DNA of 64,000 nucleotides from an uncultured bacterium (GTDB taxonomy: Bacteria > Patescibacteriota > Gracilibacteria > BD1-5 > UBA2023): NCBI GenBank assembly GCA_903908595.1, contig CAIVSN010000116.1:454-64453 (forward strand). Reading direction: 5' to 3'. Shown piece by piece: positions 2,467 to 34,630 of the stretch (its first letter is position 1; each line of letters starts with the position of its first letter). The translations under genes were made by a program, and so were the position numbers. The notes beneath the pieces were generated by a model. The model ran no database searches. It saw nothing but the letters and a program-made list of their open reading frames with translations, and had not been told where the DNA came from.

Positions 2467-2874
2467 TTATTTTTCTTCTTTCGGGAGCTTATCGGGAATA
2501 ATTGCAGGAAGGCTTTCATTGCTTTTTTCGATAATGATGTACGCGCTTCCGATGTTTCCCGCGGCGTCTTTGGCCGTGACGACGATCGGGGTGAACTGCC
2601 CCTCGAGGGCTCTCATTCCGGCTCATTCGACGACGATGAGTTCCGGGGAAGTTTTGTCGTCCGTGACCCGGACTTGGACGTCGATGGCATCTCCCGAAAC
2701 GACCTGATCGTTCCGGTAGTTCACGAATTCGATAGTCGGAGCCGTCACGTCGGGCTTCGGTTTGGCATATTTCCGGACGGACGTATACCGGTTGTCGGCG
2801 GAGATTTCGGACATTCACCAAAAGCAGAGCCCGGTCACCAACGCTATCGACACGAGTATGTTGAAATTTCTCAT
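2467..2874 (-). CDS. Small secreted/anchored protein (135 aa)
   Basis: Track ORF 2623-2814 extends across TGA 2815-2817 up to ATG 2872-2874 (MRNFNILVSIALVTGLCFW, signal-like). It also extends across TGA 2623-2625 down to TAA 2467-2469. The start lies 3 nt after the upstream gene's stop. The last ~11 codons lie inside a family-B repeat fragment. Confidence 0.55.
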
Positions 2875-2877
2875 ACG

Positions 2878-4269
2878 TTAGAATTTTTCGTGGTAAATAT
2901 GCTCGAATCCCCGGGATTTGAGCGCTTTGACGCTCGATTCCACCAATTGCGGATTCCCGCAGACATAGAACTCGCAACCCTCGGGGAAATCCAATTTCGT
3001 CACGTCGATCCTCCCCGTCTCAAAACCGGCGGCGGTTTCGCGGGAGAGGTACGTGACCGTTTTGAGGTTCGGAATTTTTGCGAGCCGGTCGGCATAGAAG
3101 CGGCTTTCGGAATCCCGCACGCCGAAGAGGAGGATCTTTTCGGTTTCCGGAATATGCGACATCATATTGACGATTGGCGCGAGCCCGGTGCCGGTAGCGA
3201 TGAACGCCTTCTTGGAATCGGTAGGCCGCAGGACGAAAGAACCGGAGACGTTTTCGATTCGCAGCGTATCCCCGACTTTCAATTTTTTCAGCGCGTTGCC
3301 TCCTCTCCCTTCGGAAATCCTAATGCAGAAGGTCAGCTTCGACCGATCGGAATCCACGACGGAATACGGGCGGACGAACGTGCCGTCCCGATCCGAGAGC
3401 ACCACCCGGGCGTATTGTCACGGGATGACCACGAACGGCGTGGCCGTTTCCACCACGAGTTCCATGGTCGTGGAATTCAGCATGGCAATCTGCCGCACCG
3501 GAGCGTCTACCGGCTCCCGGTCGTCGGCCGGCTCGGAAACGGGCACGAAATCCCTTTTGGATACCCCGCAGACCGGGCACGCCCAATCGTCCGGGATGTC
3601 CTCGAACTTCGTCCCCGGCGCGATGCCGCCGTCCGGATCCCCGAGTCGTTCGTCGTAGACGTACCCGCATGGCACGCAGAGGTATTTGGTAACGGGTTTT
3701 CCCAATGGGTTCGCTTGCCCCTTCCGGGAAGCGTCCTTGCGGAAAAATGCCACGGTCCGGAAAAATATCACGGCGCCGATAATCGCCATATACCATTCGT
3801 CGAACCTCGAAGCGAAGGCGATATGGAGCGCCGCCATGAGGAAGAGCGGGTACGCGAGGGTTTGGATTTTTTTCCAAAAACCTTTCAGCAACCGCACGGA
3901 AACATCGTTGGAAGTGACGCCGAGCAGGAAAATTATCACAAATGCCACCGTCCCCGAAGCAACGTCCAGTTCCAAGAAATGTTCCAGGACGAAGAAGGTT
4001 TTCTGGTATGCGTATTCCGCGTAGAAATATACCGCCATATGCCCGATCGCGAGCAAAAAGGCAAAAATCCCGAACGTTCTCCGATACGGCGCCCAACCGG
4101 GGCGTTCGGTCAGGGCGATGATCGGGGTGACCGACATCGCGAGGGCGAGATACAGGAAAGAAACCCTCCCAAAATCCCGAAGCAGCAGGTTCGCGGTTCA
4201 TGGGTTCATCGCGTAGAACGTGACAAAAAGGACGGCTCCGGGAACAAGGGAAAGCAGGTATCGGGTCAT
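2878..4269 (-). CDS. Fusion protein: ferric-reductase-like transmembrane domain + rubredoxin + FNR-type FAD/NAD(P)-binding oxidoreductase (NOX/FRE-like architecture)
   Basis: Same-frame track ORFs 3418-4137 and 2878-3405 are joined by TGA 3418-3420, and extend upstream across TGA 4198-4200 to ATG 4267-4269. TM part: [11 protein letters not shown]...LHIAF. Rubredoxin knuckles: CVPCGYVY...WACPVCG. FNR motifs: RPYSV, GTGLAP, CGNP. Ends in TAA. Confidence 0.8.
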
Positions 4270-12261: not shown

Positions 12262-13302
12262 ATGACTGAATCATTTCTTACTGGCCAAAATATGGAACCG
12301 CAAAATAGTATCGTCATATACGAGGGGGATAACGGAGAACTGAGAATAGAGGTGCTCATGGACTGAGAGACGGTCTGGCTGAACATTGAGCAGATGTCTG
12401 AATTATTTGGGAAAAGCCGCTCTACCGTCAATGAACATATCCTGAATATTTATGAAGAAAGCGAATTGACCGAAGCGAATACTTTGAGAAAAATCGGAAT
12501 TTCCGATTTTTCTACAAAACCGACAAATTATTACAACCTCGACGTGATTATCTCCGTAGGCTACCGGGTCAAATCCGTACGCGGTACCCGCTTTCGCCAA
12601 TGGGCTACCACGCGGCTACGGGAATACATTATCAAAGGTTTTACCATGGATGACGAGCGACTCAAAAAAGCGTGAGGGGGGAATTTTTGGAAAGAACTTC
12701 TTGATCGTATCAGGGATATTCGCAGTAGCGAAAAAGTACTCTACCGACAAGTACTCGATCTCTACGCTACCAGTATGGACTATGACCCGAATTCGGAAGA
12801 ATCGATCCGTTTTTTCAAGACGGTTCAGAATAAGCTCCACTATGCAACGAACCAGCATACCGCTGCGGAAACTATCTATGAACGAGCCGATGCAGGGAAA
12901 GATTTTATGGGGCTTGCAAATTTCAGAGGTGCCTTGCCGGTAAAATCGGAAGTAGGAATAGCAAAGAATTACCTTACCGAAGATGAACTTTTCCGACTGA
13001 ACCGAATGGTCTCGGCATTTTTCGATCTCGCTGAAATCAAAGCGTCGGAGCACGTGGAGATGAAGATGTCCGATTGGGTAAGCGAACTCGACAAATTTTC
13101 GGAAAATTACGGAAAATGAGTTCTCGATGGTTCGGGGAGAATCAGCCACGAACAAGCTCTCGAAAAGGCAGAACGGGAATATAGAAAGTATCAGGAAAAA
13201 ACGCTTTCTCCCGTCGAGGCAGCCTATCTGGAGAATATAAAATCGCTCGCGAAGAAAGTAGAAAAATGAGCGAAAACAAAACCACCTCTCGGAGCTTCCT
13301 AG
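12262..13302 (+). CDS. RhuM family virulence-associated protein
   Basis: Frame-1 track ORFs 12394-12675 and 12775-13119 are joined, with the upstream ATG at 12262, across TGA 12364, 12673, 13117 and 13267. Ends in TAG 13300-13302. Typical RhuM blocks: IVIYEGDNGELRIEVLMD[G]ETVWLN, NLDVIISVGYRVKSVRGTRFRQWATTRLREY. Confidence 0.8.
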
Positions 13303-13308
13303 TTTTTT

Positions 13309-13329
13309 TGGAGCACCCAGTAGGGTTCG
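13309..13329. repeat. Degenerate direct copy (17 of 21 nt) of the tRNA-Arg 3' end
   Basis: tggagcacccagtagggttcg compared with tggtgcacccagctgggctcg (14472-14492). Same orientation, and preceded by a T-run like the other copies. Confidence 0.6.
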
Positions 13330-13378
13330 TCCTCCGGGTCGGCGTTGATTTTCGTTTTTCCTACTCCCGGCATCAATG

Positions 13379-14203
13379 CTATTGATCCCCTTCGAGTTCC
13401 TCCCAGGTCGGTCGGTGAAACTTCCCCTCGTACGGACAAAGGGTCACCCCCTCCGCGTCGATTTCGACTTCTTCCACGTTCTGCAGGGGAAACCACTCTC
13501 CGGAAATCGATAAGAAATCCTTGTCTCCTATCTTGAGAGGACTTGCGGACACCCATTCCTCCTCATAGGTCCAGCCGACTTGGACGAGAAATTTCGAAAT
13601 GTCCTGCGGGGTTTTCGAATCGCAGGACCGTTTCGGGAAATACTGGTTGTTTTCCGTCAATGGCAAGCGCAGCCGTATTTCGCCGACGCTCTCTTTTCCC
13701 GGATCTACCGCCGTTGCGACAATGGGAGTGCGACGGGAAACCTGCATGAACATCGGCGGAGTGAGAATTCCCTTTACGACACGCGCGGTCGATCCGCTTT
13801 GGAAAACGTAGGCGCTTCAATCTTCGAAAGACAGTTCCCCGTTTTCCCCGAATGACAGGAGTTGGTCGAAAACGAAAATCCGCTTGTTCACCGACAAATT
13901 TTTCATGGCATATTTCAGGACGATCTCGTCGGAAGTCCGTTCGGATACCGTCGCCTTCAGCTCGACTCGCCTTCCAGGGGGAGAGATGGTTTCCATAGTC
14001 GTTTTGGGATTATTGATAACTGCGGTGTTCTTGGGCTTCGGGGCCTGTCACGCATCCAAGGGCATTGAGCCCGAACCGATAGCCGGCGCTTCCGGCGCCT
14101 GTGCCTTTCCGCCGGTCGACATTTTGGAAAATACGAAAAATCCGATGACGGAAAACAGTATCGCCAAAGCTAGTATCGCCGTAATTGCCCTGGATTTGTA
14201 CAT
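13379..14203 (-). CDS. Hypothetical N-terminally anchored protein (274 aa)
   Basis: Track ORF 13379-13753 extends upstream across TGA 13817-13819 and 14048-14050 to ATG 14201-14203 (MYKSRAITAILALAILFSVIGFFVF). Ends in TAA. Confidence 0.55.
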
Positions 14204-14246
14204 AAAAACTGCCTTTTTAAAAAAACGAGTTGGCGAATAGCGATGT

Positions 14247-14471
14247 TTGGTGCACCCAGCTGGGCTCGCCCGTTGGGCCGCCCGGGGCCGGAGTCCAAAC
14301 CGTTGGACTCCTCGATGCTCCGCATCGCCCCGCGTTCTCGCCGGGGGTTTTGATTATTTTGGTGCACCCAGCTGGGCTCGCCCGTTGGGCCGCCCGGGGC
14401 CGGAGTCCAAACCGTTGGACTCCTCGATGCTCCGCATCGCCCCGCGTTCTCGCCGGGGGTTTTGATTATTT
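14247..14471. repeat. Two tandem 112/113-bp units immediately 3' of tRNA-Arg. Each ends with a 21-nt copy of the tRNA 3' end.
   Basis: ggtgcacccagctgggctcg starts at 14248, 14360 and 14473, and the third occurrence is the tRNA itself. Each unit also contains the hairpins cgatgc-gga-gcatcg and ggagtcc-N8-ggactcc. Confidence 0.9.
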
Positions 14472-14549
14472 TGGTGCACCCAGCTGGGCTCGAACCAGCG
14501 GCCTCAGCCTTCGGAGGGCTGCGCTCTAATCCAACTGAGCTATGGGTGC
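14472..14549 (-). tRNA. tRNA-Arg (anticodon CCG), CCA encoded
   Basis: Minus strand reads GCACCCATAGCTCAGTTGGATTAGAGCGCAGCCCTCCGAAGGCTGAGGCCGCTGGTTCGAGCCCAGCTGGGTGCACCA. The cloverleaf folds, and the anticodon loop is CTCCGAA. Confidence 0.9.
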
Positions 14550-14689
14550 ATGGCGGCATGATATCTAAAACGTCGGATTTTTCAAATTCGATATACGAGG
14601 TTTTTTTCGGATTCCGCGCGGTTACAATTCTTACAGTGCAACTGACAGTCATGGACATTGTTATTGCCACGGAAGCGCAATCGCCTACG

Positions 14690-14811
14690 GAGACTTCTGC
14701 AAAATGATGAAATCCGAAGTCAATTTCGAGCACTGCAGTGAGGCGTACTGGCAAGTACGTCGAACGAGGAGCGGAAAAATTGACAAGGAGTTCGCATTTT
14801 GCAGAAGTCTC
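14690..14811. repeat. Family-A palindromic element, copy 1
   Basis: Termini gagacttctgcaaaatg / cattttgcagaagtctc. Conserved core gatgaaatccgaag...gaggcgtacTGGCAAgtacg...caaggagttcgc. The right end abuts the ATP-grasp gene's stop codon. Confidence 0.85.
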
Positions 14812-15794
14812 TACGGATCGAATATCAGCTTCAGCATTTCCCGTCCGGTATTCACGCCCGTAAGTTCCCGGTCTCACCCGAGGCCCGGGGTGGCGTTCAC
14901 TTCGAGGATTATTCCCCCGGTTTCTTTCAGGGGCTTGGAAAAATCGGTAGACAGGATATCGATTCCGCAGATTCCCAGTCCGAATTTTTCCGCGATTTCG
15001 ATACACGTTTGCCGGGTTTCGGGATGCAGCAATGGGGTAATGTCCCGGGCGGTGCCCCCGGTTCACAGATTCGAGTTTCATCGCAGCCGGAGGCAGGCTC
15101 AATCGGGCAAAACGCTTTCGGGAGAATATCCCTGCTTGCCGATGAAATCCCGGAGTTCCCCGTCGATCGGGATCAGGGAAAGCGGCGCTTCGTATCCGTT
15201 TCCCCGGAGCGAATTGCTTTCGTTTTCGTACCGGATCAGCGCTTCGACGGTCGATTTCCCGTCGCCGGTCACCGCCGGGGGAATCCTTTGTAGCCCGAGC
15301 AATACCTTTCCGAGCACTACCAAAACCCGACATTCGTCTCAGGCGACCTGCTCCTGTACGATCATCCGGGGGTATTCCTCCAAAGACGCCGTCAGTTTTT
15401 CCGTCAATTCCCGAACGTCCCGCAAGCCCATTTTCACGCCATTGCCATGGGCTCCGTCGACCGGCTTGACGATTACGGGAAAAACGAAGTCGGCAAAGTC
15501 CTCAGGCCCGAAGCCTTCGGACAGCCGTTTGGCATCGACGTAGCAAGTGCGGGGAATGGGAAAACCATATTTGGAAAGCATAGCATACGACAATTCCTTA
15601 TCGTCCGCGATATTTTTTCACAAGGCGGAATTCGCTCAAAAATCGGTGCTTTTGAACGTCACGGATTTCCGGGGCGATCGCACGATGAAAAAATTTTTTT
15701 CGGGAATGACCACTTCGACGGTGAGTCCGAGATTTTCCGCTTCTTCTTGGAGAACCTGGGAGGAAATCGACCAATAGGTCATGAAGTCGGTCAT
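14811..15794 (-). CDS. ATP-grasp ligase resembling the cyanophycin-synthetase N-terminal domain / RimK family
   Basis: Same-frame track ORFs 15636-15848, 15339-15593 and 15099-15323 are joined by 7 in-frame TGAs. Ends in TAG 14811-14813. Blocks: PVIVKPVDGAHGNGV, RIPPAVTGDGKSTVEALI, NL[G]TGGTARDIT, GICGIDIL, GGIILEVNATPGL. Confidence 0.75.
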
Positions 15795-15860
15795 AATTGG
15801 AAAAATTAGGGAGTCCCATGCGAAATGATGAAATGAAATCTGTCTCAAACAGCGGGATCC

Positions 15861-21066: not shown

Positions 21067-21094
21067 CTTGCAAACCCCGGCATATATGATACTA
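21067..21094 (+). promoter_or_regulatory. Candidate promoter of the giant gene (TTGCAA-N16-TACTAT with an extended -10 TG)
   Basis: -35 TTGCAA 21067-21072 and -10 TACTAT 21089-21094, with TG at 21086-21087. It lies about 30 nt upstream of ATG 21125. Confidence 0.45.
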
Positions 21095-21124
21095 TGGCCC
21101 CTAGAAAGATATCCGATCCCTTCC

Positions 21125-24100
21125 ATGTCCGTATTTCCCAAACCAAGCAGGCTCAAAAAATGGGTTTCCTCACTCCTCATTTTTACCATGTTCGCGAGCC
21201 AGACGGTGCAATTCCCGTTGCTGGTTCCCAGGATCTTCGCGGAAGGCAGCGACGTTCCGAATTTGGTATCGATCATCGTCAGCGAGTCCGTCTTTACTGG
21301 CAACACGAAGGACAAAATTTCCCAATATTCCAAGGATATCCAGGCTTCGATGACCAATACCCGGGTCGTCATCGTGAACGTGCCCGACAACATCGCCCCG
21401 CACAGCATCGCGGCGCTCAATGAAAAACTCTACTACGAAGGCGACGGCGACGGGATTTCCCGGCTCGTGGGGACCGTCCTGATCGGGAAACTCCCGATTC
21501 CCGTGGTCCACAACGGAAGCAAGAGCTTTCTCAGCATCTATCCGTATACCGACTTCGACGAAAAGGTCTTCATGTTCGACGTGGAGAAGGGCTACTACGA
21601 GGCTGGAAGCGGACCCGTGGAGCATGACAGCCCAGAAATCTGGCACGGGGTCATCCAGCCGAATTCCGGGGATTCCGCCACCGACCGGGCCAAACTCGAA
21701 CAGTACCTCGACAAGACGCACGATTTCTATGCGAAGCAGGGGGTGTTCGCCAACATGAGCCAGACGCCCTACGTTTTCTATCTCGACATCACCCACGACC
21801 AGGAAGCCGCGAGCGCTTCCAATTGGAAGGCGTACAACCTCGGCCTCGAATACCTGGAAGATCTTACCTACAAGCGCTTCAACAAGCACCTGGCCAAAAC
21901 GCTGTACGACAAGTTCCAGGGCATGCAGGATTCCACGGCGGATCTGACTTCCGAGGAAAAAGCCGAGCTCGGGGCCGCTGGGGTGGACATTCCGCCGATG
22001 GCCGATTCCATGGATTTTTCCAGTTCCCCGGACATCCAGACCCGCACCGCCATCACCGAGGTAACGAAGCAGTTCTTCGAGATTTTCAACGAAAAATACC
22101 TCGGGGACATCCTCAAGTTCATCTACAACACGGGAAGATACGGCGACGGGAGGGATACCCGGGCCGATATCGCTCCGGTACTGGTATCCAAGCGCGACGA
22201 ATTCATGAAGCGGGTCATTAAGGACAGCAATACCGCGCTCGAAAACAGCATCGACCAGCTCGTGAAATCCGGCCTCGCGATCGATCTGGCCATTCCGACC
22301 GACGTCAAAATCACCAAAACCGGCTCGGGCGCTGACGCCAACAACCCCGTTCCGCCGATATACCGCAATTACTATTATGGGAAATTGGCGAGTTCCATTA
22401 CCAACGCGAAGGAGTGCTCCATCGTCCGGGGTTCTACGCTCCCGGTCGAAGCGAACCGGGGATACAATATCCTCAACGTCGAGCCGGATTTGCAGAAGCT
22501 TACCCAATATTCGACGCTGTGCTTCCCCGGAGGGCTTCCCGCGACGATGGACTGGTGGGGCGGCAACAGCCCGCTCAACGTGAAGACCGATTCGTTCACG
22601 GCGGCGGATTTGGCGATCTTGCAAAGCGCGACGGGCGGAACGGACCTCTCCGCCTACGAAGGCAAGCTCTCCACCAAGTTCGAGCTCAAGGGCAACGTCT
22701 ATAAGGATTACGTCATCCAGACCTTCGATCTCCTGGGGCAAAGCGAAATCTCGCGTACCGGAGCGCTCCGCGTCAATTCCCCGTCGGATTGTCTCGCCTC
22801 GAACTATATCGCGGATCCGTTCGTCGGAAAATCCGAGGATGGGATGTCATTTTCCCAATTCCAGCATCCGCAGACTACGGGGGGGACGCAGTTCGTCTGC
22901 GTGATGCGGGACAGCAAGGGGGTGCTCGGCCACAAGTTTTTCGTGCAATCCAGCACGACCCTTTTCGCGGACGCCATCGCCGACCGGATCAACCCGCCCC
23001 TCTGTACCGTCGTCAAAGTCAATCTGGTGGGAGGTTTTTCCAAGCAGTTCGGACGGCTGTGCGATGAAGAAGTACCGGTGGCGACCACGGGAAACGGAAC
23101 GGGAGAATCCTCCGGAACGGAAACGGTGACGACCGGGACGACCGAGGAGTACGACTTCAAAAAGATATCTTCCTGGATCGTCCACAAATCCCCCACGGAC
23201 GAAGAATACGGGGCCGCCGTCAAAGGCATGACCACTCCTTCCCTCGCGAGCGACGGGGACCGCTACATCGACTTCATGGGCCCTGCGGGAACCGTCCAAA
23301 AAATCGTCTATCCGAATTTTTTCCGGCTGAACAACCAGTCCTACGAGGCCGCGTTGGCAACGGCAGGAACCTGAGGCAGCACGTTTTTTGGCGATCTCGT
23401 GACCGTCGTGGACCACTCCCTCGCCTCGGCCGGCTGAGGCACCGTGGCCAACACTGGGGCCAGCCTGCTTTCCGGCAATATGCCCGACCTGACCATCGAT
23501 ATGGTCAAAGATTCCATCAAGGCGGTCCTCGATAAGAAAAGCGCCGAAATCAACGCCATTATCAACGCGCAGGATCCGGCGCTCCTCACCGGGGATCAGG
23601 CCGCGATCTACCAGCTCATGAATACCGGCGCCTATCCGGCCGCCAACGTCGATCTCTATACGATGGTCGCGAGCAGCGGGAACATGCTCACGACCCTGGC
23701 GGATACCATCCTCTGGTACAACCGCACCAACGCGACGAGCAAGTATTCGTTCATCCTCGAGAATTACCTCGACCGCGACGGGAACCGGGACTACCCGCTT
23801 TCCGGGCACCATTCCGATTATGAAATGGGATACATCGGCGGACCCGGCGACGCGCAGAACATGTACGTCAAGGTCGACCCAGAATCCAAAGGCACCCTGT
23901 CGAAAGACATTACCGACATCCAGGCCGACTACGGTTCCCTCGTAAACCTGCTGGACGCCGCGAACGTCGCCGAGTACAGTCCCGAAGATTCCCAATTCAA
24001 GTGCGGGCCGCCGGAGGGCGTGGTCATTTGGAAATGGCTTCCTGCCGTCTTCTGCTGGCTCGGGACGATTCTCCCGCCGACCATTTCGGCCGGATCCTGC

Positions 24101-27100
24101 GGACCGCAACTCGGCTCCGATACGGACAAGGGGCAAGACCGCGATTTTTTCACTTCGATTCCGGGCACGGACGGCAAGCTCGCCTGGCAGCAAGACCTCG
24201 ACCATAACGGAATCCTCGACGGATACGAGTGGGTCAAGGACGGGGAAATCAAGCTTGCCGCTTCTCTCAAGCGGATCGGATACCGCTCGGGCGCGGCGCT
24301 GACGGCCGATCTCACGAAGGACGGCCGGATTCTCGCCCACGATTCGTACAACCAGGTATTTTTCGACGTCAAGAAAATCACGCTGCTGAAGGGTCAGAAC
24401 GATCTCGAAGGCAATCCGGTGACTTCCGACAAGATCGTCTACGTCCGGGGAGGAACGGGAGCCGCCGGAAGCATCGAGACGCTCAAAAAATACGTTTTCT
24501 TCACGCCGATCGCGGTCCGGGCGGAGGCGGGAACGGCCACCTACGGCATCCAATCCATCGACCGGGACATCGATATCGATATCGTCGCCACCGTCGCTCC
24601 GAAAGACAAAAACGGAAACGTCGCCTTTTCCAAGGATTCCAATCTCATTACCCTCAAAGTCCGGGACGAAGCGCTCAAAATCGGTACGGAAATCCAGGAA
24701 ACCACCGGAACCGGATCCCGGGTCGATCCGACCTTCAAGGCGGGAGACGCGAGCAAAATCACCTTCAAGTTCACGGTATCCGGGAAAAATCCCGAAACGC
24801 CGACGGCCGCGAAATCGCCCATCAAGATCAAAATCCTCGACGACGTCGACGGAACGGAGCTTACGCCGAGGCCGGCGGATATCGGCAGCGACACGTTCAT
24901 TTATGCCGGAAACCTCCTGAAACAGGCCGGGAATTACCGGTTCGAATTCGTCGACGCGGAAGACCGGTACGGCACCGTCATGGTGAACGTCCTCCCGGGC
25001 GACCCATTCAAGATCGAAGCCGTAGCGGCCTCGAACATGTTCGTGAAAGGCCAGAAAAATATGGTCCTCGTAACCGTGAAGGACCGATTCGACAACTACG
25101 TCAAGGGGGACTTGCTCCAGGTCGCCGGCACCGTCGACGGGGGCGCGTATTTCACGGAAAACCACGATGCCGCCAATTCGAAAAGCACCGTCGAAGGCGT
25201 ATTGAGCTTCGAGATGAGCGCCGACGCCGGAAGCACGGGCAACAACACCCACAAATTGGATTTCAGCACCGTCGACAGCAAAGGCGCGACCATCAAGATG
25301 GCCACGCCGCTGACCGTCCAATCCATCGACTACGCCAAGATCCAGGTAAACGTCGCGAACCGCGGCAGCCTGGTGGCCGGAGGTTCCGGACAGACCGTCA
25401 CGCTCAAGATTACCGACAATCTCGGGCAGGTATTGACCGGGTTCAACGGGGTCGCCAGTCTGGATTTTCCGAAAAATTCCGGATTCTTCAGCACGCCGTT
25501 CGTCCAAATCACGAACGGGACCAATTCCGGCGCCCTGACCTTCACTCCGGGAACGGTCGCGATCCTCGATGCCAAAATCGACGTGCAGGTCCCCGGGATC
25601 GTCGACGTGGAAGGCGGAACGCTGAGCATTCTCCCGAACGTGCCGATGCGCGTGGGACTCCTCTCCGATACCGCCAAATTCGAAGCCAAGGTCGGGAATT
25701 CCGCCGGGATTACCGCGCAACTGTTCGACCGGTACGGCAACATCGCCTACAATCACCCGGCCGGAATGTCGGCGAATTTCACGATTCCGAGCGGTTACGG
25801 CAAGTACGGCAGCATCAGCGGGGGGAACGTGCCATTCGCGAACGGGGAAGCCAAGGTCCAAATCAATTCCAGCAGCAGTCCGGGCACCCTCTATTATATG
25901 GTGGAAGTCGCTCCCGGACTCGAAACGAATACCTTTACCATAGAAGGGGAAAATATCGACACGACCCCTCCGACGAAAACTTCCGTCACGATCAAGGGGT
26001 ATTCCAAAAACGTCGCCTACATCGAGAGCTACTACCTGTGGAACGCGGAAAAACTCGCGAAAACCAACTACAACGTCCTCTCCACCACCCTGCTCGGGGC
26101 CGACTACGGAAACGTCACCGTTCCGAACTATCTCGCGGGCGAACTGATTTTCAATTCCGGCAGCTCGTCGATGGCGGTCACGACGCTCCTGGGCAACGCC
26201 GAAAAGCGGGACGAAATCGTCCAGATGACCCCGGGAGGAAAAATCGTCCTCGACCGGGGCCAGACGGCCGAAGTCCAAATCGGTTCCAACAAGAACCGGA
26301 CGACGCTCGATATTTTCGACCCGTTCAAACGGGAAAATATCGGAAGGTTCTATCTCAATACCAGTCCGGCGACGCCGACGTTCGCATGCGCCACGGACGA
26401 AGCGGACGAAATCGACGCCTGCGACTTCCAGGGCAAGGAATCCTATATGGTCCTCAAGGGATTGGGCGAGGCCGAAGTGACGAAGATCGGCAACCGGCTC
26501 AGCCTCGGTTTCGACGGCATTCCCGTCTTCGAAATTTCTCCGGACGGAACGATCACCAAGTATCCGAACGTCACCGTGGAAGCGGACGGGGAAGAAAGCA
26601 GGAATCTCCTTTCGCTCTCCATCGTCAGCAGCGGCATCAAAATCGGACGGCTCGGCATCAAGTGGGACGCTCCGGAGATTATCGTCAGCTCCCCTTCGAC
26701 CCTCGACGCAGCGCTCGCGAGCCACCCCGGCACCATCGTCTACGAGGGCATTTCTCCCCGATACGGCATCAAACAGGACAACCTGGGGAATACTTCCGCG
26801 GGAGACAAGGGCCTCAAGATTTTCGCCCAGAGCGAAGACGTGGAGACGGACCGGGATCTCATAGGATCCTCCGGCAAGCTGGGATACGAGGAATACGCCA
26901 AAAACAAGGGGATCGGATTCGGCGACGGCAACAACACCCAACTCGAATTCGCGAGCCAATCCACCGTCGGGCAATCCGCCAAATCCTTCGCGACCTACTC
27001 CGAAATCGTCATCGGCGACCCGGTCGCGAGGCTTCCGGAAATCCTCTCTCCCCAGAACTTCGACCGAACCCTGGGAAAAAGGCTCATGAGCAGCGCCGGC

Positions 27101-30100
27101 GGAATCATCGAATCCTATTCGACGATCGACTACAACCGGGACAACATGCAGGACATCGTCGTCTTCTACCAGGACGGCAAGGTCGAGCTCCTGCAAAACT
27201 ACCGGTGAACCTACAAGAGCCTCGGCTATCTCCTCTACGTCTTCGACGCGGGCAAGGAACGCAAGGGCGCGGGGGATTTCAACGGCGACGGCTACGGGGA
27301 CTTGGTCATGGTGGACCAGGACGGCAAACTCATCGTCATCCAAAACCGAAAGGGCAAATTCGTCCGCGTACCCGCAAAAATCATCGACCAAGCCGGTGCC
27401 GAAGCCAAAATCGGCGGATCCGTCATGCAGCTGGAAATATTCGACATGGACAAGGACGGCAAAACCGACATCGTCATTTCCGACGATTCCGGAGAATTGA
27501 ACATCCTCTACGGCGGCGGCACTCCGGACGACGTCGTTTTCACCAAAAAATTGCTCGACGACGGCATCGGAATCAAGCTGGGAACCGGGGAATTCACGAA
27601 CGGCGGGGCGATCCGTTTCGACGGCATCAAGGAAATGACCCCGTTCACCCAGACCGGGTACGTCATGGAAACCGAGGCTTCCAGCGCGGACGCCGACGTC
27701 GAAACACTCAGCCTTCCGGACCAAATCCGGCTCTTGGACAGCAAAATCTACTACCAGCAAACCGTCTACGAGGAAGTTCAGAACCCGGCGGAGGCCCAGA
27801 ATATCCGGCTGCTCAGCGGAGTGGGCGACGATCCGGACAATCCCGGCGTCCCTAACCAGGCGCTCGCCGATGAGATCAGCCAGACGATTCTCGATTTGCA
27901 GAACCAGGCGGCGAGCGGCAGCATCGACACGAGCGAACTCACGAACGCGACGATCGAAAAGCAGCGCTCGTTCCTCCGATCCGAATTCGCGGACGGAAAA
28001 GACATAAAAATCGCAAAAAAATATACCGATAGCAACGGCGGGTTCCTTCAGGCGGGGGATCCGATCCTGGTAACGATCGACGTGACCAATGCCGGAAGCG
28101 CTCCCCTTTCCGGAGTCATCTATCTCGACAGTTACGAAAAATCCGTGTTCCAGCCGGGAGAAAACGATTCGTATGCCATTTACGGCGGGTCGGGCAGCAT
28201 GATGGGAACCGGGGCTTTCGCCGCCTTCACGGGAAGCACGTTCTTCGACGAACTGGCAACGGTCGTGGACCATTCATTGTCCGCGGCCTCGGGCGGCTGA
28301 TCGGCCGGAAGCGCCGCCGCCACGGGATCTGCCCAAGACGGGCTCATTGGCACCGGCAGCCTCGACCAGCTCACCGAAGGGGAATTCGACTTCCAATTCG
28401 GAACGCTGACCATCCCCGTGGGCCAGAAAATCACCATCAAATACCTCCTCAAGGCCAATGCTATCTCCGTCGGGAAATTCCACGTGGGCGTACTCGAAAC
28501 CGATGACATATACGGGGACGTCAGCATGAACGCGAACTCGGTCTGCTGAGACCAGGAATGGCTTTGGAAATCCATCGTACCGACTCCGAGAACGTATTCG
28601 GCAAGAACCCTCAGGGATATCCCGGAGAGCGGCGACGTAGCCGGTACCCAAAAGGGCAAGTTCACCGATTTCAACGGCAACGGATCCCCGGACTATATCG
28701 ACCTCCTTTCCGGAACGGGCGGTAACGATTCCATGGCGTCCTCGCTCTGGGATCCAACGCGACACGGGATCCTGGTTTTCCGCGAAACCTCGACCGATAC
28801 CGGGCTGGACGGAACGAATTTCGAAGTCGGACGGGTCGTCTCCAATTCCGAAACGGGGTACGTCCAACTCAACCCCGTATCCGTAAAGGAAGACGTTCCC
28901 GTTCTCGCGACGCCGGCGCTCGCCAACGGGACGATCAACGGAAACGAACTCGGCGCCGGAAGCGTCAGCAACGTCCTGACCGGAAGCGTTACCAATACGC
29001 TGATCACGACCGCCTGCGGACAACCGGGCACTTCCGTTTCGGATCTCCGGCTCACGGGATACCGGCAGATCTATCATCCGAGCGTCATGTCGGACATTAC
29101 GGGAAACCTCTCGCTCGTCGCCGTCGGAACGTCGAAAACCCTCGACGCTTCTGGAAGCGTCATCGGTACGGGCGACTGCATGATCGACATCAATTCGACG
29201 TCGAATCCGGCATGGGACGGTACCAAGGTCACCGGGCTCGGCTGGAAACTCCTCACCAAGGGAACCTTCCAGCACTTCAGCCTCGGGGGCACGCAATCCA
29301 ACCTCATCGCCGAGTCCGTCGGAATTCCCGACAGCCACGAACCGCTCGGAAGCGATTTGTTCACGTTCGAAAGCGATGGGTCGCTCATCGGGGGAACCGT
29401 CGACATCGGGGGCATGTCGGACGAAAACATCGACAAGGTCAACGGGGCCATCGATACCATCGTCCAGGGCCTCGGGTGCGGATTCGGAGGAGGTAGCTGC
29501 CTCTCCATGCCGATGAACTGGGCCCCTCTCGCCCCGGGTTCCGCTCCGGTCGTCATGGGATTCCCCATCGGGGGACTCAGTCCGTCGACGGGTTTCCCGG
29601 TATTCAGCAGCCTCACGGGCATCCAGACGATGTGCGGCAAATCGCCTTGCTGCATACCGAGCGTTTTTCCCATAAGCCCCCTCGCCTACGTACCCGGACC
29701 GGCTTGCGGATCCCCGAGCGCCGGAGGATACCTGGGCACCTGGGCGCCAACCAACACGTTCCGCTTCTATATCACCCCGACCATCACGGGAGCCGTGGGA
29801 ATCGCCGCGTGTTTCGGAGGTACGGCCATGGTTACCGGACGAATACCGCCACAGGCCGTATCGCCGCTCGTGCCGGGAGGCAACTGCGTCGTCGCGGCCA
29901 AGCCGCTCCTCGGCTGCAAGGACGACGGTTCCGACGGGACGTTCGAGGACTTGTGAAGCACCGATAACGGAACCCTCAATGCCGGATCCTGCAAGAACCA
30001 ATCCGACGAGGAAACCGTTTCCGCCGAAGACCAGGAAAAAATCCGAGCCTTCGTCCGCGGCGACAATACCTTCGTGAGCGATATCGTCAAAAATGCCGCG

Positions 30101-33100
30101 GGCCGCGGAAGCATGATTATTCCGAACGGTCCCCTGCTCTCCATCTGAGGCCGGGGCGGAAGCGGAGCCGGCAGCTTCGAGCTGGCCATCGATCTCAAGA
30201 GCATCAAGAACTTCGATATCGGCATCATCACCAAAATCAGCAACCAGCGGGTTTCCGCGTTCCCGGATTTCATCATGGACTGGGTCAACCGCCAATTGGA
30301 AGAAGTCGCCAACAAACTCACGAGCCTCCCGACGCTGTATATCATCAAGCCGGATTTCCGAGGCGTCATCGACGGCAACTGGAACGGGTTCACGGAGAAG
30401 CTCGGGAAAGCCTACGGTACCGGAAAGAAAAACGGCAGTCCGGTACTCGGCAACGAAAACGCCGGCCGGAGCATTTCCGGCGTCAAGTCAGCCTACGAAT
30501 TCATGTCCCGGCTCCCCCTTATCAAATTCGAGAAAACGACCCTGGACATCTCCTATCCGGACATCGGCCAGGAAGACCTCAACAAGGCCCTCAAGAATCT
30601 CAAGAATACCAAGGCCCAATGGGAGCGGGAGATTTCGAGCAAGAAAGCCCTGTACGCGGGCACGTTGACCGCTACCGGCATGGACGCGAGCATTATCGTC
30701 CGGTCGGAATGACTTATCAGCAGCATCAACCAGAACATCCGAACGATAGAGGAATACAAGAAATTCCCGGAAAAACTCGCGAAGTACCTTACCTGGAAGG
30801 AACGGTATGCGGCGCAATTGCTCTGCAATATCACGGCAATCCAAAACATGCTGGACAGTTTCATTACCAAGAATGCCATCCGCTTCAAGGCCTGGGTCGA
30901 GTTCTTCGAACTGCTCAAGAACATCCTCAAGGGCTGGCAGCTCATCCCGGACCTCTTCTACAAGAACGAGGCCGAATGCGGGGTGTGCCGCAACGAGCGC
31001 TACGACGCGAAGCATTTCATGTTCAAGCTCATCAAGGCCATCATACCGCCGCTTCCGATCATCAAGTTCCCGAAGTGGCCGGACATCATCTTGGACCTCC
31101 ACAACGTTCGGCTCGGCCTCCGCATCGCCATGCCGGAATTCGTGTTCCACCCGACCCCGATCGTCCTTCCGAGATTCCCGAATCTCGCGTTGCCGACGCT
31201 TCCGAAACTGGGCATCGGTTTGCCGAGCATTCCGACGCTTCCGAGCCTGCCGCCGTTACCGGAATTGCCGGATATTCCGTCGCTTCCGCTCATCACCCTT
31301 CCGGAACTCCCGCCGCCGCCGACCATCCCGAAGCTCTTCGGAGCCATCAAATTCACGTTGAACATCCTCAAGATCATCGCGAAGGTCCTCTGTATCATGC
31401 GTTCGAATCCGTTCGTGCCGGAATGGCGCGCCGGAGACCAGATTGCCCAGATTACGGAACGGCAGGGCAAAATGAAGCTCGACTTCCTCAATATCGAATT
31501 CCCGCAGTTCAACGCGAGCTTCGTCGATGCCATCAAGGTGACGACCTACGTGAATTTCGAGTTCCAGATCGACTTCCTCCTCGAAATGGCCAAAGCCACG
31601 TTCGAACCGATCAACGCGTTCACCTCGAACCTCTCGAACATCGTTCCGAACGCGACCAAGGACATCCTTCCGAACAAAGTGGACCTCCGCGGGCTCAATC
31701 CGGGCAACCAGAAAATCCAAATCGGTCCGACCGGAATGGAAGGCAAAAACCCGTTCGTCAAGCAATACGCCCAAACGTTGGCCCAAGCATTCGTTACGAC
31801 GATCAAGCAAGGACAATTCTACGCGAACGAATCGGCGGCCTACGAGGAAATACGGGAGAATCTCGCCGACGAGCTCGCCCATACCCACGCGACCCCGGGA
31901 ACCCCGGGATTCGCCATCCTCGAAGAAATGCGGGAAGGACTCCGGATTCGCGGCGATGCCGAAGCCGAAGCCCTCGCGACCGAACTCCGAAGGGACAACG
32001 ACGAAAAGTTCAACCTCGCGAACGGTTTCGTCAAATCGGAGATGCACGAAATCACGGAACTCCAGGCCCAACTCCACCTCGTGCAAACCGGCAAGAAGGA
32101 CCTCTCGGATATTTTCGGGACCCGGAAAAGCGGGGGAAATGCCGAATTGACGGATTCCGCGAACCCGTACAGCACCGAATCGGAACTTCCAGATTTCACC
32201 AAATTCAACGAACGGGCCTACGTCGCCTATTCCGAACTCCTCGCACCGAAGCCGGACGACGAACTCGTGACCATGGGAAAAAATCTCAAGGACAGCATGC
32301 AAGCCTATTCCGCGGAAGCCGAGAGGAAGTCCGCCGAATACTGAGCCGGAACTGACATTGCCGGCGGAGGCGAACTCGCGAATTACGAATACCGCGGCAT
32401 TTATACCAAGGACAACGGTCGGCAGATCCGGCTCTTCGATTACACCAACGACCTCATGGGAGACGAGAGAGCCGTCCAGGTCGACCGGCTCGGAAACGGG
32501 GCGATAGAATATATCTACCTGAGCGGGGACGGATTGTATCTCAAGACCAAACTGGGGAATTCCGGAACCTCGGCGACGAGCGGAAGCGCTTCCACGGGCG
32601 GAACCGGTTTCTTCGACGAACTCGGCACCGTCGTGGACAATTCCCTGTCCATGGCTACGGGAGGAACTCCGACTGCCAACACCGGAGGTGGGACTTCGGG
32701 CAGCGTCACGACCAGCATTCCCGTCTACCGGCTTTCCGGCATCATCGATCTTCCGAATTCCGAAACGTTGCGGCCGACCGCGCCGAACCGTTTCGTGGAA
32801 AGATTCGTGGCTTCCGGGGAAATCAACTTCTCGTTCCGGCCGGCCGACTTGGTCAACGACACGATTTTTCGAATGGAATTCTACGATTATATCGATCGCT
32901 TCGACCTGCGGATGAGTGGGAAAGACTGGAAGGATATCGCGCCGACCACCCGGGTTTCCTACGTGGATCTCGTCCCGGAATTCACGGGCGAAACCGTGAC
33001 GGACGCTTCCAATACCGGCATCATCCTCCAAAAACCCTATGCGAAATACTTACAGGGAACCGGGAACGGATTCATCAGCGGGGCGGACTACCGCACCCTC

Positions 33101-34630
33101 TGAGCCGGCTCGAAGATTCAGGTTGCCGCGAGCAAATCGATCTATGCTGACGGAGGCGGAGCGAAAATCGCGTACAAAATCGCCGACAGCGCGGCTTCCG
33201 TTACGGGCAGCACGGTGACCATACCGAATTCCGGAGAACTCAAATTCTTGGACAACATGGACATGGAAGTCCTGAACGGAAACGTCATCCTCATTAACGA
33301 GAGTTCGAGCCCCGTACGGCGGCCACAGGATTTTCAGAAACTGAACGGGCTTCCCGTCATCCTGGGTCAGAAAATAGAAATTCCCGCGACGACGGCCCGG
33401 CTCAATATCGAGTATTACAACGGCGCATCGCTCCGCATGGACGGGCCGAGCCTCTATGAAAGCCACGAGCTCGGAGCGAAATCCGACGAATATGACGTGT
33501 CGCTCCGCCAGGATAACGGCTGGTACTACGCCAGGCTCGAAAGCGTTTCGCCGAGCCCCCGGACCAGTACGCGGATCACGCTGCTTTCGCCACAAATGGA
33601 AGCCGACAAGGAAGCTCCGCTCATCGAGGTCGCGGGAGGATTCCGGGCGCCGGTCTATCTCGACCGTGCCATAGACTTACGCGAACAGATTACGGACGTT
33701 TCCGGCATCAGCGACGTGTTTATCGACACGGATCTCGCGGCCGATTCCGACCGGGATGGGCAAATGGACAACGACCGGGATTCCGACGCGGCCGGATCGA
33801 TATTCAGAAAGGGCAGCTCCAATCTCGAATGGATCGTCAAAGCCCAGGATCGACTGTTCGAGAAGAAAATCAAAATCTGGGCCGGGGACGAAAGCGGAAA
33901 TTTGGCAGGAACAGAGACGGATCTCCGCATCTATGCCCCGGTTCCGAATATTTCGACCCAATCGGGAACCACGATTTTCGGAAACCTCGACGAGTCGTTG
34001 GACGGCGAACCGACGGATATCGTCCGGTACCGCAACGGCAAGATTTCCCCTATCGGCAACGCGGCGCTTACCCAGAGCGGCGGGGAATTCCTCAATACCT
34101 TCGGCACGAATACCGGAATAGCCATCAGATGACCGTCGGGCGAATTGGCAAAAATCAACGAAAACACCGGAAAACTCACCCTGAGCGGCAGCGAGAACGA
34201 ATTCGTCGTCCTCCCGGCCAACGCCGACGTCCCGATGCGGATCGAAATCCAGAAGAAATCGGATCATTCCGTCCTCTACTCGCAATCCGTAGCACTGGGA
34301 AGCGCCGGGAAGATAGAACCCGTGTCCAGCCTCGCGGAAGCTCTCGCCAAAGCGAAATGAGGCCTCGGCGTACGTCTCGATGCCGGATGGAATTTCGTCC
34401 GGAACCCGGGCAATAGCCCGTCGCTTCCAGGAGGCATATTCGTCACGGACGCGGACATGAAACCGGTGTTCGGTATCGCCAAGGATGGCAACGTATACTT
34501 CCTGAAATCCTCTGGACTCAGCCTGAAATACGGAACCGAACAGGACTACTTCGTCATCGAAGTCCGCGACGCGGACCATCTCGTCGGAACCCTCTATTAC
34601 GTACTCGATGCCGAATATGTCATCAAATAG
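21125..34630 (+). CDS. Giant secreted surface protein (~4,500 aa) with FG-GAP/VCBS-like, Ig-like and DUF11/CARDB-like segments and a Pro-rich region
   Basis: Nine frame-2 track ORFs (21068-23374, 23444-27208, 27302-28300, 28733-29956, 30275-30712, 30818-32344, 32456-33103, 33215-34132, 34145-34360) are separated only by 12 in-frame TGAs. The first TAA/TAG in frame is TAG 34628-34630. Signal-like MSVFPKPSRLKKWVSSLLIFTMFASQ. FG-GAP-like GDFNGDGYGDLVMVDQDGKL and DMDKDGKTDIVISDDSGEL. Pro-rich LPSLPPLPELPDIPSLP. Confidence 0.85.

Follow-up and report, generated by a model that had tools for sequence, protein, structure and literature searches.

Why does the 3' end of a tRNA gene recur, in one orientation, at the head of two identical tandem units in the genome of an uncultured bacterium? 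We addressed this question in a stretch of 64,000 nucleotides (called here the window; GenBank assembly GCA_903908595.1, contig CAIVSN010000116.1, positions 454 to 64,453) from a member of the Gracilibacteria (BD1-5, UBA2023), in which a tRNA-Arg(CCG) gene is followed by two 112-bp units. An earlier note on this DNA had seen there the signature of site-specific integration into a tRNA 3' end. Comparison with related genomes suggests that the two units are probably copies of a decayed, gene-less, structured and tRNA-linked cassette, which belongs to a family of Gracilibacteria cassettes resembling mobile inserts and which would have doubled recently.

The repeats downstream of tRNA-Arg(CCG)

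The tRNA-Arg(CCG) gene (14472–14549, minus strand) is predicted by ARAGORN and scores 67.7 bits with the Rfam tRNA model. Its last 21 nt (14472–14492, from C56 to A76), named X here, read TGGTGCACCCAGCTGGGCTCG on the plus strand, and this 21-mer occurs exactly at 14248, 14360 and 14472 only, with an expectation of 0 in shuffled sequences. The recurrence of the tRNA 3' end reported in the earlier note is thus exact at three positions, and its perfect tandem units are recovered by Tandem Repeats Finder (14246–14492, period 112, 2.2 copies, 100% matches). The units were scored with two covariance models, R1, built from five Arg-type copies of the element described below, and R2, built from 35 copies. 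The proximal unit (14360–14471, minus strand, 100% in Tandem Repeats Finder) scores 113 bits with R1 and 96 bits with R2; the distal unit (14248–14359, minus strand), 100% identical to the proximal one, scores 106 and 90 bits, respectively. Read in the tRNA sense, the proximal unit is composed of a AAATAATCAAAA spacer, a degenerate arm (CCCCGGC + GAGAAC), a helix P2, three hairpins A, B and C, and a copy of X. The two clean hairpins per unit already pointed out are present in both: hairpin A (CGATGC-TCC-GCATCG) at 14425–14439 in the proximal and 14313–14327 in the distal unit, hairpin B (GGAGTCCAA-ACCG-TTGGACTCC) at 14402–14423 and 14290–14311, and the X copies lie at 14360–14380 and 14248–14268.

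A further, imperfect copy of X lies on the minus strand at 13307–13329 (19/23 including the preceding TT(T), and 17/21 over 13309–13329, as first noted). Matches of this grade are expected by chance at 0.023 per window (7 in 300 shuffles), and the whole 2.4-Mb genome holds just two other matches to X with four mismatches or fewer; on these grounds the copy is probably a genuine relic, the tail of an older and almost erased unit. R2 gives a non-significant 10.3 bits at 13307–13421, a match that ends exactly at the relic X.

A family of tRNA-linked cassettes

In the window's own genome, BLAST with the 91-nt body of the unit finds this locus alone, other copies of the family being too diverged. 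In other genomes the body recurs downstream of tRNA-Arg: twice in G001 (contig C103, behind tRNA-Arg(GCG), and contig C3, behind tRNA-Arg(CCG), the latter copy being truncated near the contig end) and once in G020 (contig C181, which ends inside the tRNA). The genes upstream of tRNA-Arg(CCG) on C3 of G001 have no synteny with the window. In G099 (the same sequence as AMFJ01000097), tRNA-Arg(TCG) is followed by a weaker match to the core, and a second AMFJ01 copy lies behind a tRNA-Leu, identified from its tail sequence.

The covariance models reach much further. R1 detects diverged copies in 12 of the 401 genomes of the class, each of which has several. With R2, copies are found in 39 of the 89 genomes of the taxonomic family, representing 13 of its 24 genera, with 1–17 copies each, and in only three further genomes among the others sampled in the class; nearly all the genomes compared are fragmented metagenome-assembled genomes (MAGs). 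The window genome itself gives 12 R2 matches at 8 loci. The earlier note had proposed a search of this genome for other copies of the body and for integrases: copies are found there by R2 where BLAST returns only the original locus, and two tyrosine recombinase genes are found, on contigs C39 and C142. The units of the window share the core of this family, as judged by their covariance-model scores and by a 99%-supported Arg clade that joins them to the copies of G001 and G020.

At 19 of 23 loci fetched from other genomes a tRNA gene lies 7–76 nt upstream on the same strand, and one of the four remaining loci follows a 3' fragment of tRNA-Arg. The tRNAs at the fetched loci are of the Ser, Lys, Ala, Arg, Gln, Met, His, Val, Gly, Glu, Pro, Leu and Thr types. 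The linkage is likewise seen for 15 copies in G099 and in the window genome, the distance being nearly always 0–76 nt at the loci checked; the proximal unit of the window starts 12 nt past tRNA-Arg(CCG), on the same strand.

These cassettes match no family in Rfam or in the literature searched. Against Rfam release 15 (E ≤ 1), the window locus and the loci of three relatives match only tRNA, and full-text literature searches returned no description of such cassettes. Scans with strict DNA patterns yielded in genome contigs only the known Gracilibacteria loci and three chance matches inside genes, in metagenome contigs only AMFJ01, twice, and in viral contigs 0 matches with two patterns.

Anatomy and fold of the cassettes

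An intact cassette is gene-less and about 110–170 nt long. In the tRNA sense, the order is tRNA, usually a terminator hairpin, a 5' arm, a core, and X. The 5' arm is the reverse complement of positions ~53–72 of the neighbouring tRNA and ends in GAAC. The core is a three-way structure in which helix P2, with the conserved GAGGC...GGCCGAG, encloses hairpin A, which is variable, and hairpin B, which is conserved with a CCAACGRTTTGG tip; the variable hairpin C follows. X repeats the local tRNA directly, beginning at T-loop position 56/57 and reaching CCA, and in some copies it extends over the trailer and terminator as well. The arm is able to pair with X, and the helix so formed, P1, closes the core and mimics the T-stem/acceptor segment of the tRNA.

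The match of both ends to the local tRNA is seen at other loci of the window genome. At tRNA-Gly(GCC) the arm matches at 20/20 positions and X at 17/19; in unit 1 of tRNA-Leu(CAA) the values are 16/17 and 20/21. The arm matches at 14/14 at tRNA-Lys(CTT), where no X was found, and at 17/17 at tRNA-Leu(GAG), where X is cut by the contig end, while tRNA-Ser(GCT) has an X of 20/20 and no arm beyond a 7-nt chance match. In this genome X always starts at tRNA position 56 or 57, and the arm always reaches back to G53. The X copies of the window units match tRNA-Arg(CCG) at 21/21 positions from C56.

The fold is conserved well beyond its sequence. In an alignment of 35 sequences, which was fitted to the model and thereby inflates pairing toward the structure, standard pairs occupy 88% of cells, compared with 65.7% after column shuffles and 34–54% with slid partners; double-sided changes occur at 32 of 32 pairs, with 232 compensatory cells. 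From copy to copy the sequence of hairpin A can be entirely different, and yet a hairpin is retained. On these comparisons the 91-nt body is a conserved, covarying element and neither local junk nor the residue of an integrase, and the suspicion voiced in the earlier note, of a possible independent function for the units, is in keeping with such a body.

Several features bear on which strand folds, and as what. The pairs comprise 846 Watson–Crick, 41 G·U and 23 A·C; the strand lean given by G·U versus A·C (41 versus 23) is weak and is biased by the orientation of the model. The loops are more informative: in the tRNA sense, purines make up 79% of the loops of hairpins A and C (GAA, GGA, AAA, GAAA, AGA). 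Moreover, it is only on this strand that the G and A positions at the GAGGC...GGCCGAG junction would be able to form tandem G·A pairs. Because of these purine-rich loops and potential G·A pairs, the folded form is most likely the tRNA-sense strand, as RNA or as single-stranded DNA.

Insertion, arrays and change of target

The window genome and G001 share a neighbourhood containing tRNA(UCA), tRNA-Gly and, further on, tRNA-Arg(GCG). On contig C142 of the window genome the trailer TTAAGCCAAAACC...CCCCGAGAGGG directly follows the CCA of tRNA-Arg(GCG), which makes it an empty site. On C103 of G001 about 150 nt (terminator, arm, core and X) come in between, and it is after the distal X that the orthologous trailer is found. 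The two sites form a clean pair, one empty and one filled, with a duplication of 20 nt; the empty-site comparison suggested in the earlier note is thereby provided, at another tRNA-Arg gene. At the window locus itself, the expected empty-site junction would be the tRNA joined directly to ...CATCGCTATTCG.

The duplicated segment varies across the family from ~20 to ~68 nt, and adjacent pairs or triplets of R2 matches are common. The closed genome G024 carries, behind tRNA-Ser(GCT), 3.4 units of 165 nt with 99% identity, in which the repeated part runs from tRNA position 57 through the terminator. The arrangement at tRNA-Ser(GCT) of the window genome is similar, split by the assembly into the ends of contigs C175 and C20. 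In both cases the duplication ends where the primary tRNA transcript would have its 3' end, at the end of the terminator, which would fit an RNA intermediate as part of the improbable guide model discussed below. More contigs stop in this way: those that end in cassette arrays or the adjoining tRNA include C175 (27298), C20 (6747) and C61 (13392) of the window genome, C181 and C2 of G020, and C3 of G001, and cassettes systematically break short-read assemblies at tRNA genes.

A tree of the cores follows genus (15 label changes versus 26 when shuffled, 0 of 500 shuffles being as low) and also tRNA type (23 versus 29, 1 of 500). Several clades join different tRNAs: Leu and Arg in G099 (support 98), Arg and Ser of G018 with Ser of G099 (97), and Gly and Ser in the window genome, G000 (95). 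Since closely related cores thus stand behind different tRNAs with entirely different, locally matched arms, retargeting is indicated; the pattern of the core tree points to retargeting, with gene conversion of cores a less likely source.

A more complex arrangement is found in G099 (contig C5, 1239–1680, locus L023), where a diverged duplicate of tRNA-Arg(TCG), truncated at its 5' end, comes after the gene. The direct repeats are nested (one of X with a spacer of 39 nt, one of a 16-nt tail), in the order D1-M-D2-N-D1-D2, as recombination with a circular copy would give.

Decay and doubling of the window copy

The window units depart from the intact cassettes in their 5' part. Where the G001 copy has a terminator and the stretch of the arm complementary to the acceptor, they have AAATAATCAAAAC. 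Their complement of the T-stem is CCCCGGC, compared with GCTGGGC in the G001 and G020 copies, and P1 keeps only 4 of 7 pairs. What is left of the arm is CCCCGGC + GAGAAC, the acceptor complement being gone, so that the units lack the arm typical of the family; given their core and tail, we read this lack as the decay of a family member and not as a sign that they lie outside the family.

The earlier note had seen integration that was apparently repeated or decayed. Both units carry the identical arm defect (they are 100% identical), and because of this shared defect the duplication of one decayed copy is favoured over serial integration, the insertion of one and the same broken unit twice, independently, being less likely. 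A single cassette would have been inserted at tRNA-Arg(CCG). The terminator and the greater part of the 5' arm would then have been lost, and unequal recombination between the 24-nt X+AAA repeats, or slippage of replication there, would recently have doubled what was left. The relic X at 13307–13329, on the far side of an orphan open reading frame (ORF) described below, would stem from an older event.

Enzymes that might place the cassettes

More generally, the cassettes can be regarded as non-autonomous insertions, placed at the T-loop/3' end of tRNA genes by a trans-acting or host activity, the tRNA being kept whole since the inserted cassette would supply a copy of its tail. The presence of five enzyme families was compared with that of cassettes in the 89 genomes of the taxonomic family. 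Reverse transcriptase is present in 35 genomes (18 of 39 with cassettes versus 17 of 50 without, an odds ratio of ~1.7) and Y1/HUH transposase in 27 (12 of 39 versus 15 of 50). TnpB occurs in 5 of the 89, none of them with cassettes, and IS110 transposase in a single genome that has no cassettes. Xer-like tyrosine recombinases are found in 83 of the 89, at about one per genome regardless of cassette copy number; G099, for instance, has 17 cassettes and one such gene. Genes for TnpB, IS110 and Y1 are all missing from the closed genome G024, which carries ten cassettes. The two tyrosine recombinases of the window genome are on contigs other than that of the window (those named above), and no integrase is among the genes that surround the copies in G001 and G020.

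It is possible, by analogy with CTX-phi attP and integron attC, that the universal Xer-like recombinase acts on a folded single strand. Copying of the arm by snap-back, ends capped by hairpins and a self-primed terminator were also considered as origins of the arms; the flanks lack the sequences that these models predict. We also considered that the cassette is a mobile element free of protein genes, in which the 5' arm would be a rewritable guide able to pair with the T-loop-to-acceptor segment of any tRNA gene or transcript, insertion after the universal GTTC would be set by this pairing, and the core would be catalytic or recruit a ubiquitous host enzyme; we give this idea only about one chance in ten.

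Some other genes of this kind were seen near cassettes or in related genomes. At locus L082 (G092, contig C15, 1560–2060, minus strand), a gene for a 346-amino acid (aa) tyrosine recombinase is followed by a 45-nt tRNA 3' fragment, a terminator, a cassette and two copies of the tRNA tail; by this layout, the att site of a classical island and the cassette family share one locus. Contig C20 of the window genome, 6.7 kb long, carries a reverse-transcriptase ORF (2481–3161, minus strand, 406 aa, no TGA) at 3.4 kb from the array. G114, of the same taxonomic family (genus g14, 1.6 Mb), has 26 copies of Y1 (IS200/IS605-type) transposase, many identical, which indicate a recent burst of an insertion sequence.

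Alternative explanations

The most conventional explanation is that of classical att scars: an island or prophage with a tyrosine integrase would have integrated repeatedly into the 3' end of tRNA-Arg and decayed, leaving the body as a residue of the attP flank. The direct repeats do begin within the T-loop (position 56), as at att sites of the T-loop type, a tRNA 3' segment does flank the insert, a relic copy lies beyond the orphan gene, with RhuM nearby, and the layout in G092, integrase gene, tRNA 3' fragment and cassette, shows that classical islands use the same sites. To this extent the integration signature recognised in the earlier note stands, the more so as the trailer follows the distal X in the filled/empty pair. 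The insert, however, is a gene-less sequence of ~110–170 nt in genomes with about one Xer-like recombinase each, and not the scar of a gene-carrying integrase island. The body has a conserved fold that covaries, it stands behind over 13 kinds of tRNA without any adjacent genes, the number of integrases is independent of that of cassettes, and attL and attR have no inverted arm matched to each tRNA. In agreement with the earlier note, which saw no integrase, no Pfam integrase was found in the scanned flanking ORFs between ~7.6 and 20.8 kb. We consider the att-scar reading of the 112-bp units largely refuted, and very improbable. The same note had made integration depend on two further points, and on both the cassettes behave as insertions would: the locus is polymorphic among relatives and not uniform, and the body is linked to a tRNA at nearly every locus checked.

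A more serious competitor, although still an unlikely one, is a resident non-coding RNA, resembling a tRNA minihelix, transcribed with or just after the tRNA and processed by tRNA-maturation enzymes that would recognise the acceptor/T-stem mimic and CCA, and spread only by local duplication of the tail. It would account well for the strong covariation with conserved loop and junction sequences, for purine-rich loops of the GNA/GNRA type and tandem G·A pairs that could form solely on the tRNA-sense strand, for the frequent CCA end of X, and for the window, which has no terminator between tRNA and units. It fits poorly with a patchy distribution (39 of 89 genomes, many genera having none), with decayed or truncated copies, those of the window included, with an empty site in a genome of the same genus, and with arrays of near-identical units. 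Moreover, a terminator usually separates tRNA and cassette, leaving no room for a promoter, and G·U pairs are rare (41 versus 846 Watson–Crick). An RNA function and the insertion of cassettes are not mutually exclusive. As for an artefact, in which the assembler would have written two units where there is one or a variable number, the source is a short-read MAG in 186 contigs, and arrays break this assembly (C175 and C20 at tRNA-Ser(GCT), and the end of C61) as well as those of G020 (C181/C2) and G001 (C3). Assemblers, on the other hand, usually collapse tandem repeats and do not expand them, the unit-to-unit junction needs at least two units, a closed genome holds a 3.4-unit array of the same family, and the assignment to the family would stand even with a single unit; we therefore hold an artefact to be very unlikely.

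A decayed and doubled cassette remains, in our view, the probable explanation, and several points weigh against it. We infer the mobility of the cassettes from comparative patterns, and part of the covariation reflects an alignment fitted to the model. Similar cores at different tRNAs could be due in part to gene conversion and not to transposition, the proposal gives no account of how the arms come to fit each new tRNA, and among the 89 genomes no enzyme of the five families tracks the cassettes. The exact copy number of two is predicted from the assembly of a short-read MAG.

Neighbouring genes and genetic code

The locus is flanked by a RhuM-family gene (12262–13302, plus strand; Pfam PF13310, E = 2.5e-102) that converges on it. 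This gene, named in the earlier note, matches the Pfam model end to end only with four in-frame TGAs read as sense; it is taken here as neighbouring context only. On the other side, upstream of the tRNA, the adjoining gene is not the DUF2958 gene that had been placed there: it encodes a RimK-like ATP-grasp protein (14811–15848, minus strand; PF08443, E = 5.6e-16), and the DUF2958 domain lies near 17.3 kb, ~2.8 kb from tRNA-Arg(CCG).

Between the last X of the units and the relic X lies the orphan ORF (13379–14203, minus strand, 274 aa, with an N-terminal hydrophobic segment). The reading frame reported there earlier does exist, but as a gene it requires that two TGA codons be read through (as Gly), and it has no Pfam match and no homologue in five genomes of the same genus or in an index of 5.8 billion proteins. 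It is possibly a cargo gene of the cassette type, or not a real gene. The 1.16-kb bracket delimited in the earlier note may plausibly be an old cassette with a captured gene, a reading drawn from the 17/21 match and the non-significant 10-bit model match. The distal hypothetical proteins of the window and of G020 are unrelated.

A comparable layout of X, gene and relic X is seen on contig C168 (9429–10550), where tRNA-Leu(CAA) is followed by three cassettes, two of them adjacent with different terminators and the third ~550 nt beyond; the intervening sequence may hold a small ORF.

With a consensus scan, a sigma-70-like promoter (TTGAAA-16-TATCAT, 14558–14585, minus strand) is found just upstream of tRNA-Arg(CCG) and no terminator-like site is called between 13200 and 14900. 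Transcription of the tRNA might therefore traverse both units, and read-through from this promoter into the orphan ORF is possible. On the plus strand, the unit ends at 14328–14359 and 14440–14471 read CCCCGCGTTCTCGCCGGGGG then TTTTGATTATTTT, which has the look of an antisense terminator, although the scan does not call it. A perfect 17-bp inverted repeat (GAGACTTCTGCAAAATG / CATTTTGCAGAAGTCTC, 14690–14706 and 14795–14811), whose arms are separated by 88 nt, is located between the promoter of tRNA-Arg and the ATP-grasp gene.

The genome, like this family of Gracilibacteria, reads TGA as sense, with four in-frame TGAs in the RhuM gene and 12 in an ORF of 4,520 aa (21068–34630 of the window), and it encodes a 79-nt tRNA with anticodon UCA (contig C142, 29555–29633) beside tRNA-Gly(GCC). 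Both observations fit Gracilibacteria code 25. The window assembly (2.41 Mb in 186 contigs, completeness 98.7%, contamination 5%) may represent an unusually large genome or a mixed bin, genomes of the same genus being 0.9–1.3 Mb.

Comparison with known systems

The cassettes share with integrative elements that target tRNA or tmRNA genes (prophages, integrative and conjugative elements, islands) and with the integrase-less cis-mobilizable elements (CIMEs) a target in the tRNA 3' end, a repeat starting in the T-loop, a tail copy that preserves the tRNA, and stacking in tandem; a T-loop sublocation of such integration was reportedly described by Williams in 2002. They differ in being gene-less, 110–170 nt long and tracked by no integrase, with a repeat of ~20 to ~68 nt, and in having an inverted arm matched to the tRNA and a conserved, covarying three-way fold.

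In the CTX-phi attP(+), two inverted half-sites ~90 nt apart pair in single-stranded DNA. The cassettes are similar to this site and to integron attC in their inverted arms ~85 nt apart that pair into a duplex mimicking the target, in a structure conserved beyond sequence, and in stems that are nearly all Watson–Crick, a likeness of structure alone. In contrast with attC and attP(+), the arms of the cassettes copy the target tRNA and change with it, their loop is a core of three hairpins, and they come without an IntI gene or an attached phage genome.

MITEs (miniature transposable elements that bear inverted repeats), REPINs and small intergenic repeats are also short, gene-less, multi-copy, hairpin-forming, patchy and sometimes in tandem. 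The terminal inverted repeats of the cassettes, however, derive from each target and are not specific to the element, as those of a MITE would be; there is no short target-site duplication of fixed length, no parent insertion sequence was found, the Y1/RAYT type of enzyme is uncorrelated with them, and their target is strictly the tRNA 3' end.

A structured scaffold flanked by target-matching segments recalls the reRNA (omega RNA) of IS200/IS605 TnpB and the bridge RNA of IS110, and the start of the cassette copy after the universal GTTC of the T-loop is reminiscent of a target-adjacent motif. Unlike in these systems, the cognate gene is absent from genomes with cassettes (TnpB and IS110 being present in only 5 and 1 of the 89), nothing matches in Rfam, and the two segments that match the target are each other's complement. 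Finally, as in tRNA-like structures (the tmRNA domain, YrlA, viral ones), the acceptor and T stems are mimicked by the closing helix, which in many cases has NCCA at its end, whereas the cassettes copy the adjoining tRNA, are multi-copy and patchy, have an 85-nt core in place of the T-loop and belong to no Rfam family.

In practice, cassettes of this kind break MAG assemblies at tRNA genes, create tandem repeats and could pass for the att scars of lost islands, for which those of the window had been misread. None of the transposase and recombinase families tested accounts for them. If the comparative picture is true, the tRNA genes of uncultivated bacteria with tiny genomes host minimal gene-less insertions of 110–170 nt, which repair the tRNA that they interrupt, match their ends to the local tRNA and keep a conserved fold. 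If the activity that places them were found, it could reveal a new mode of DNA or RNA targeting, by ~20 nt of complementarity beside a universal motif.

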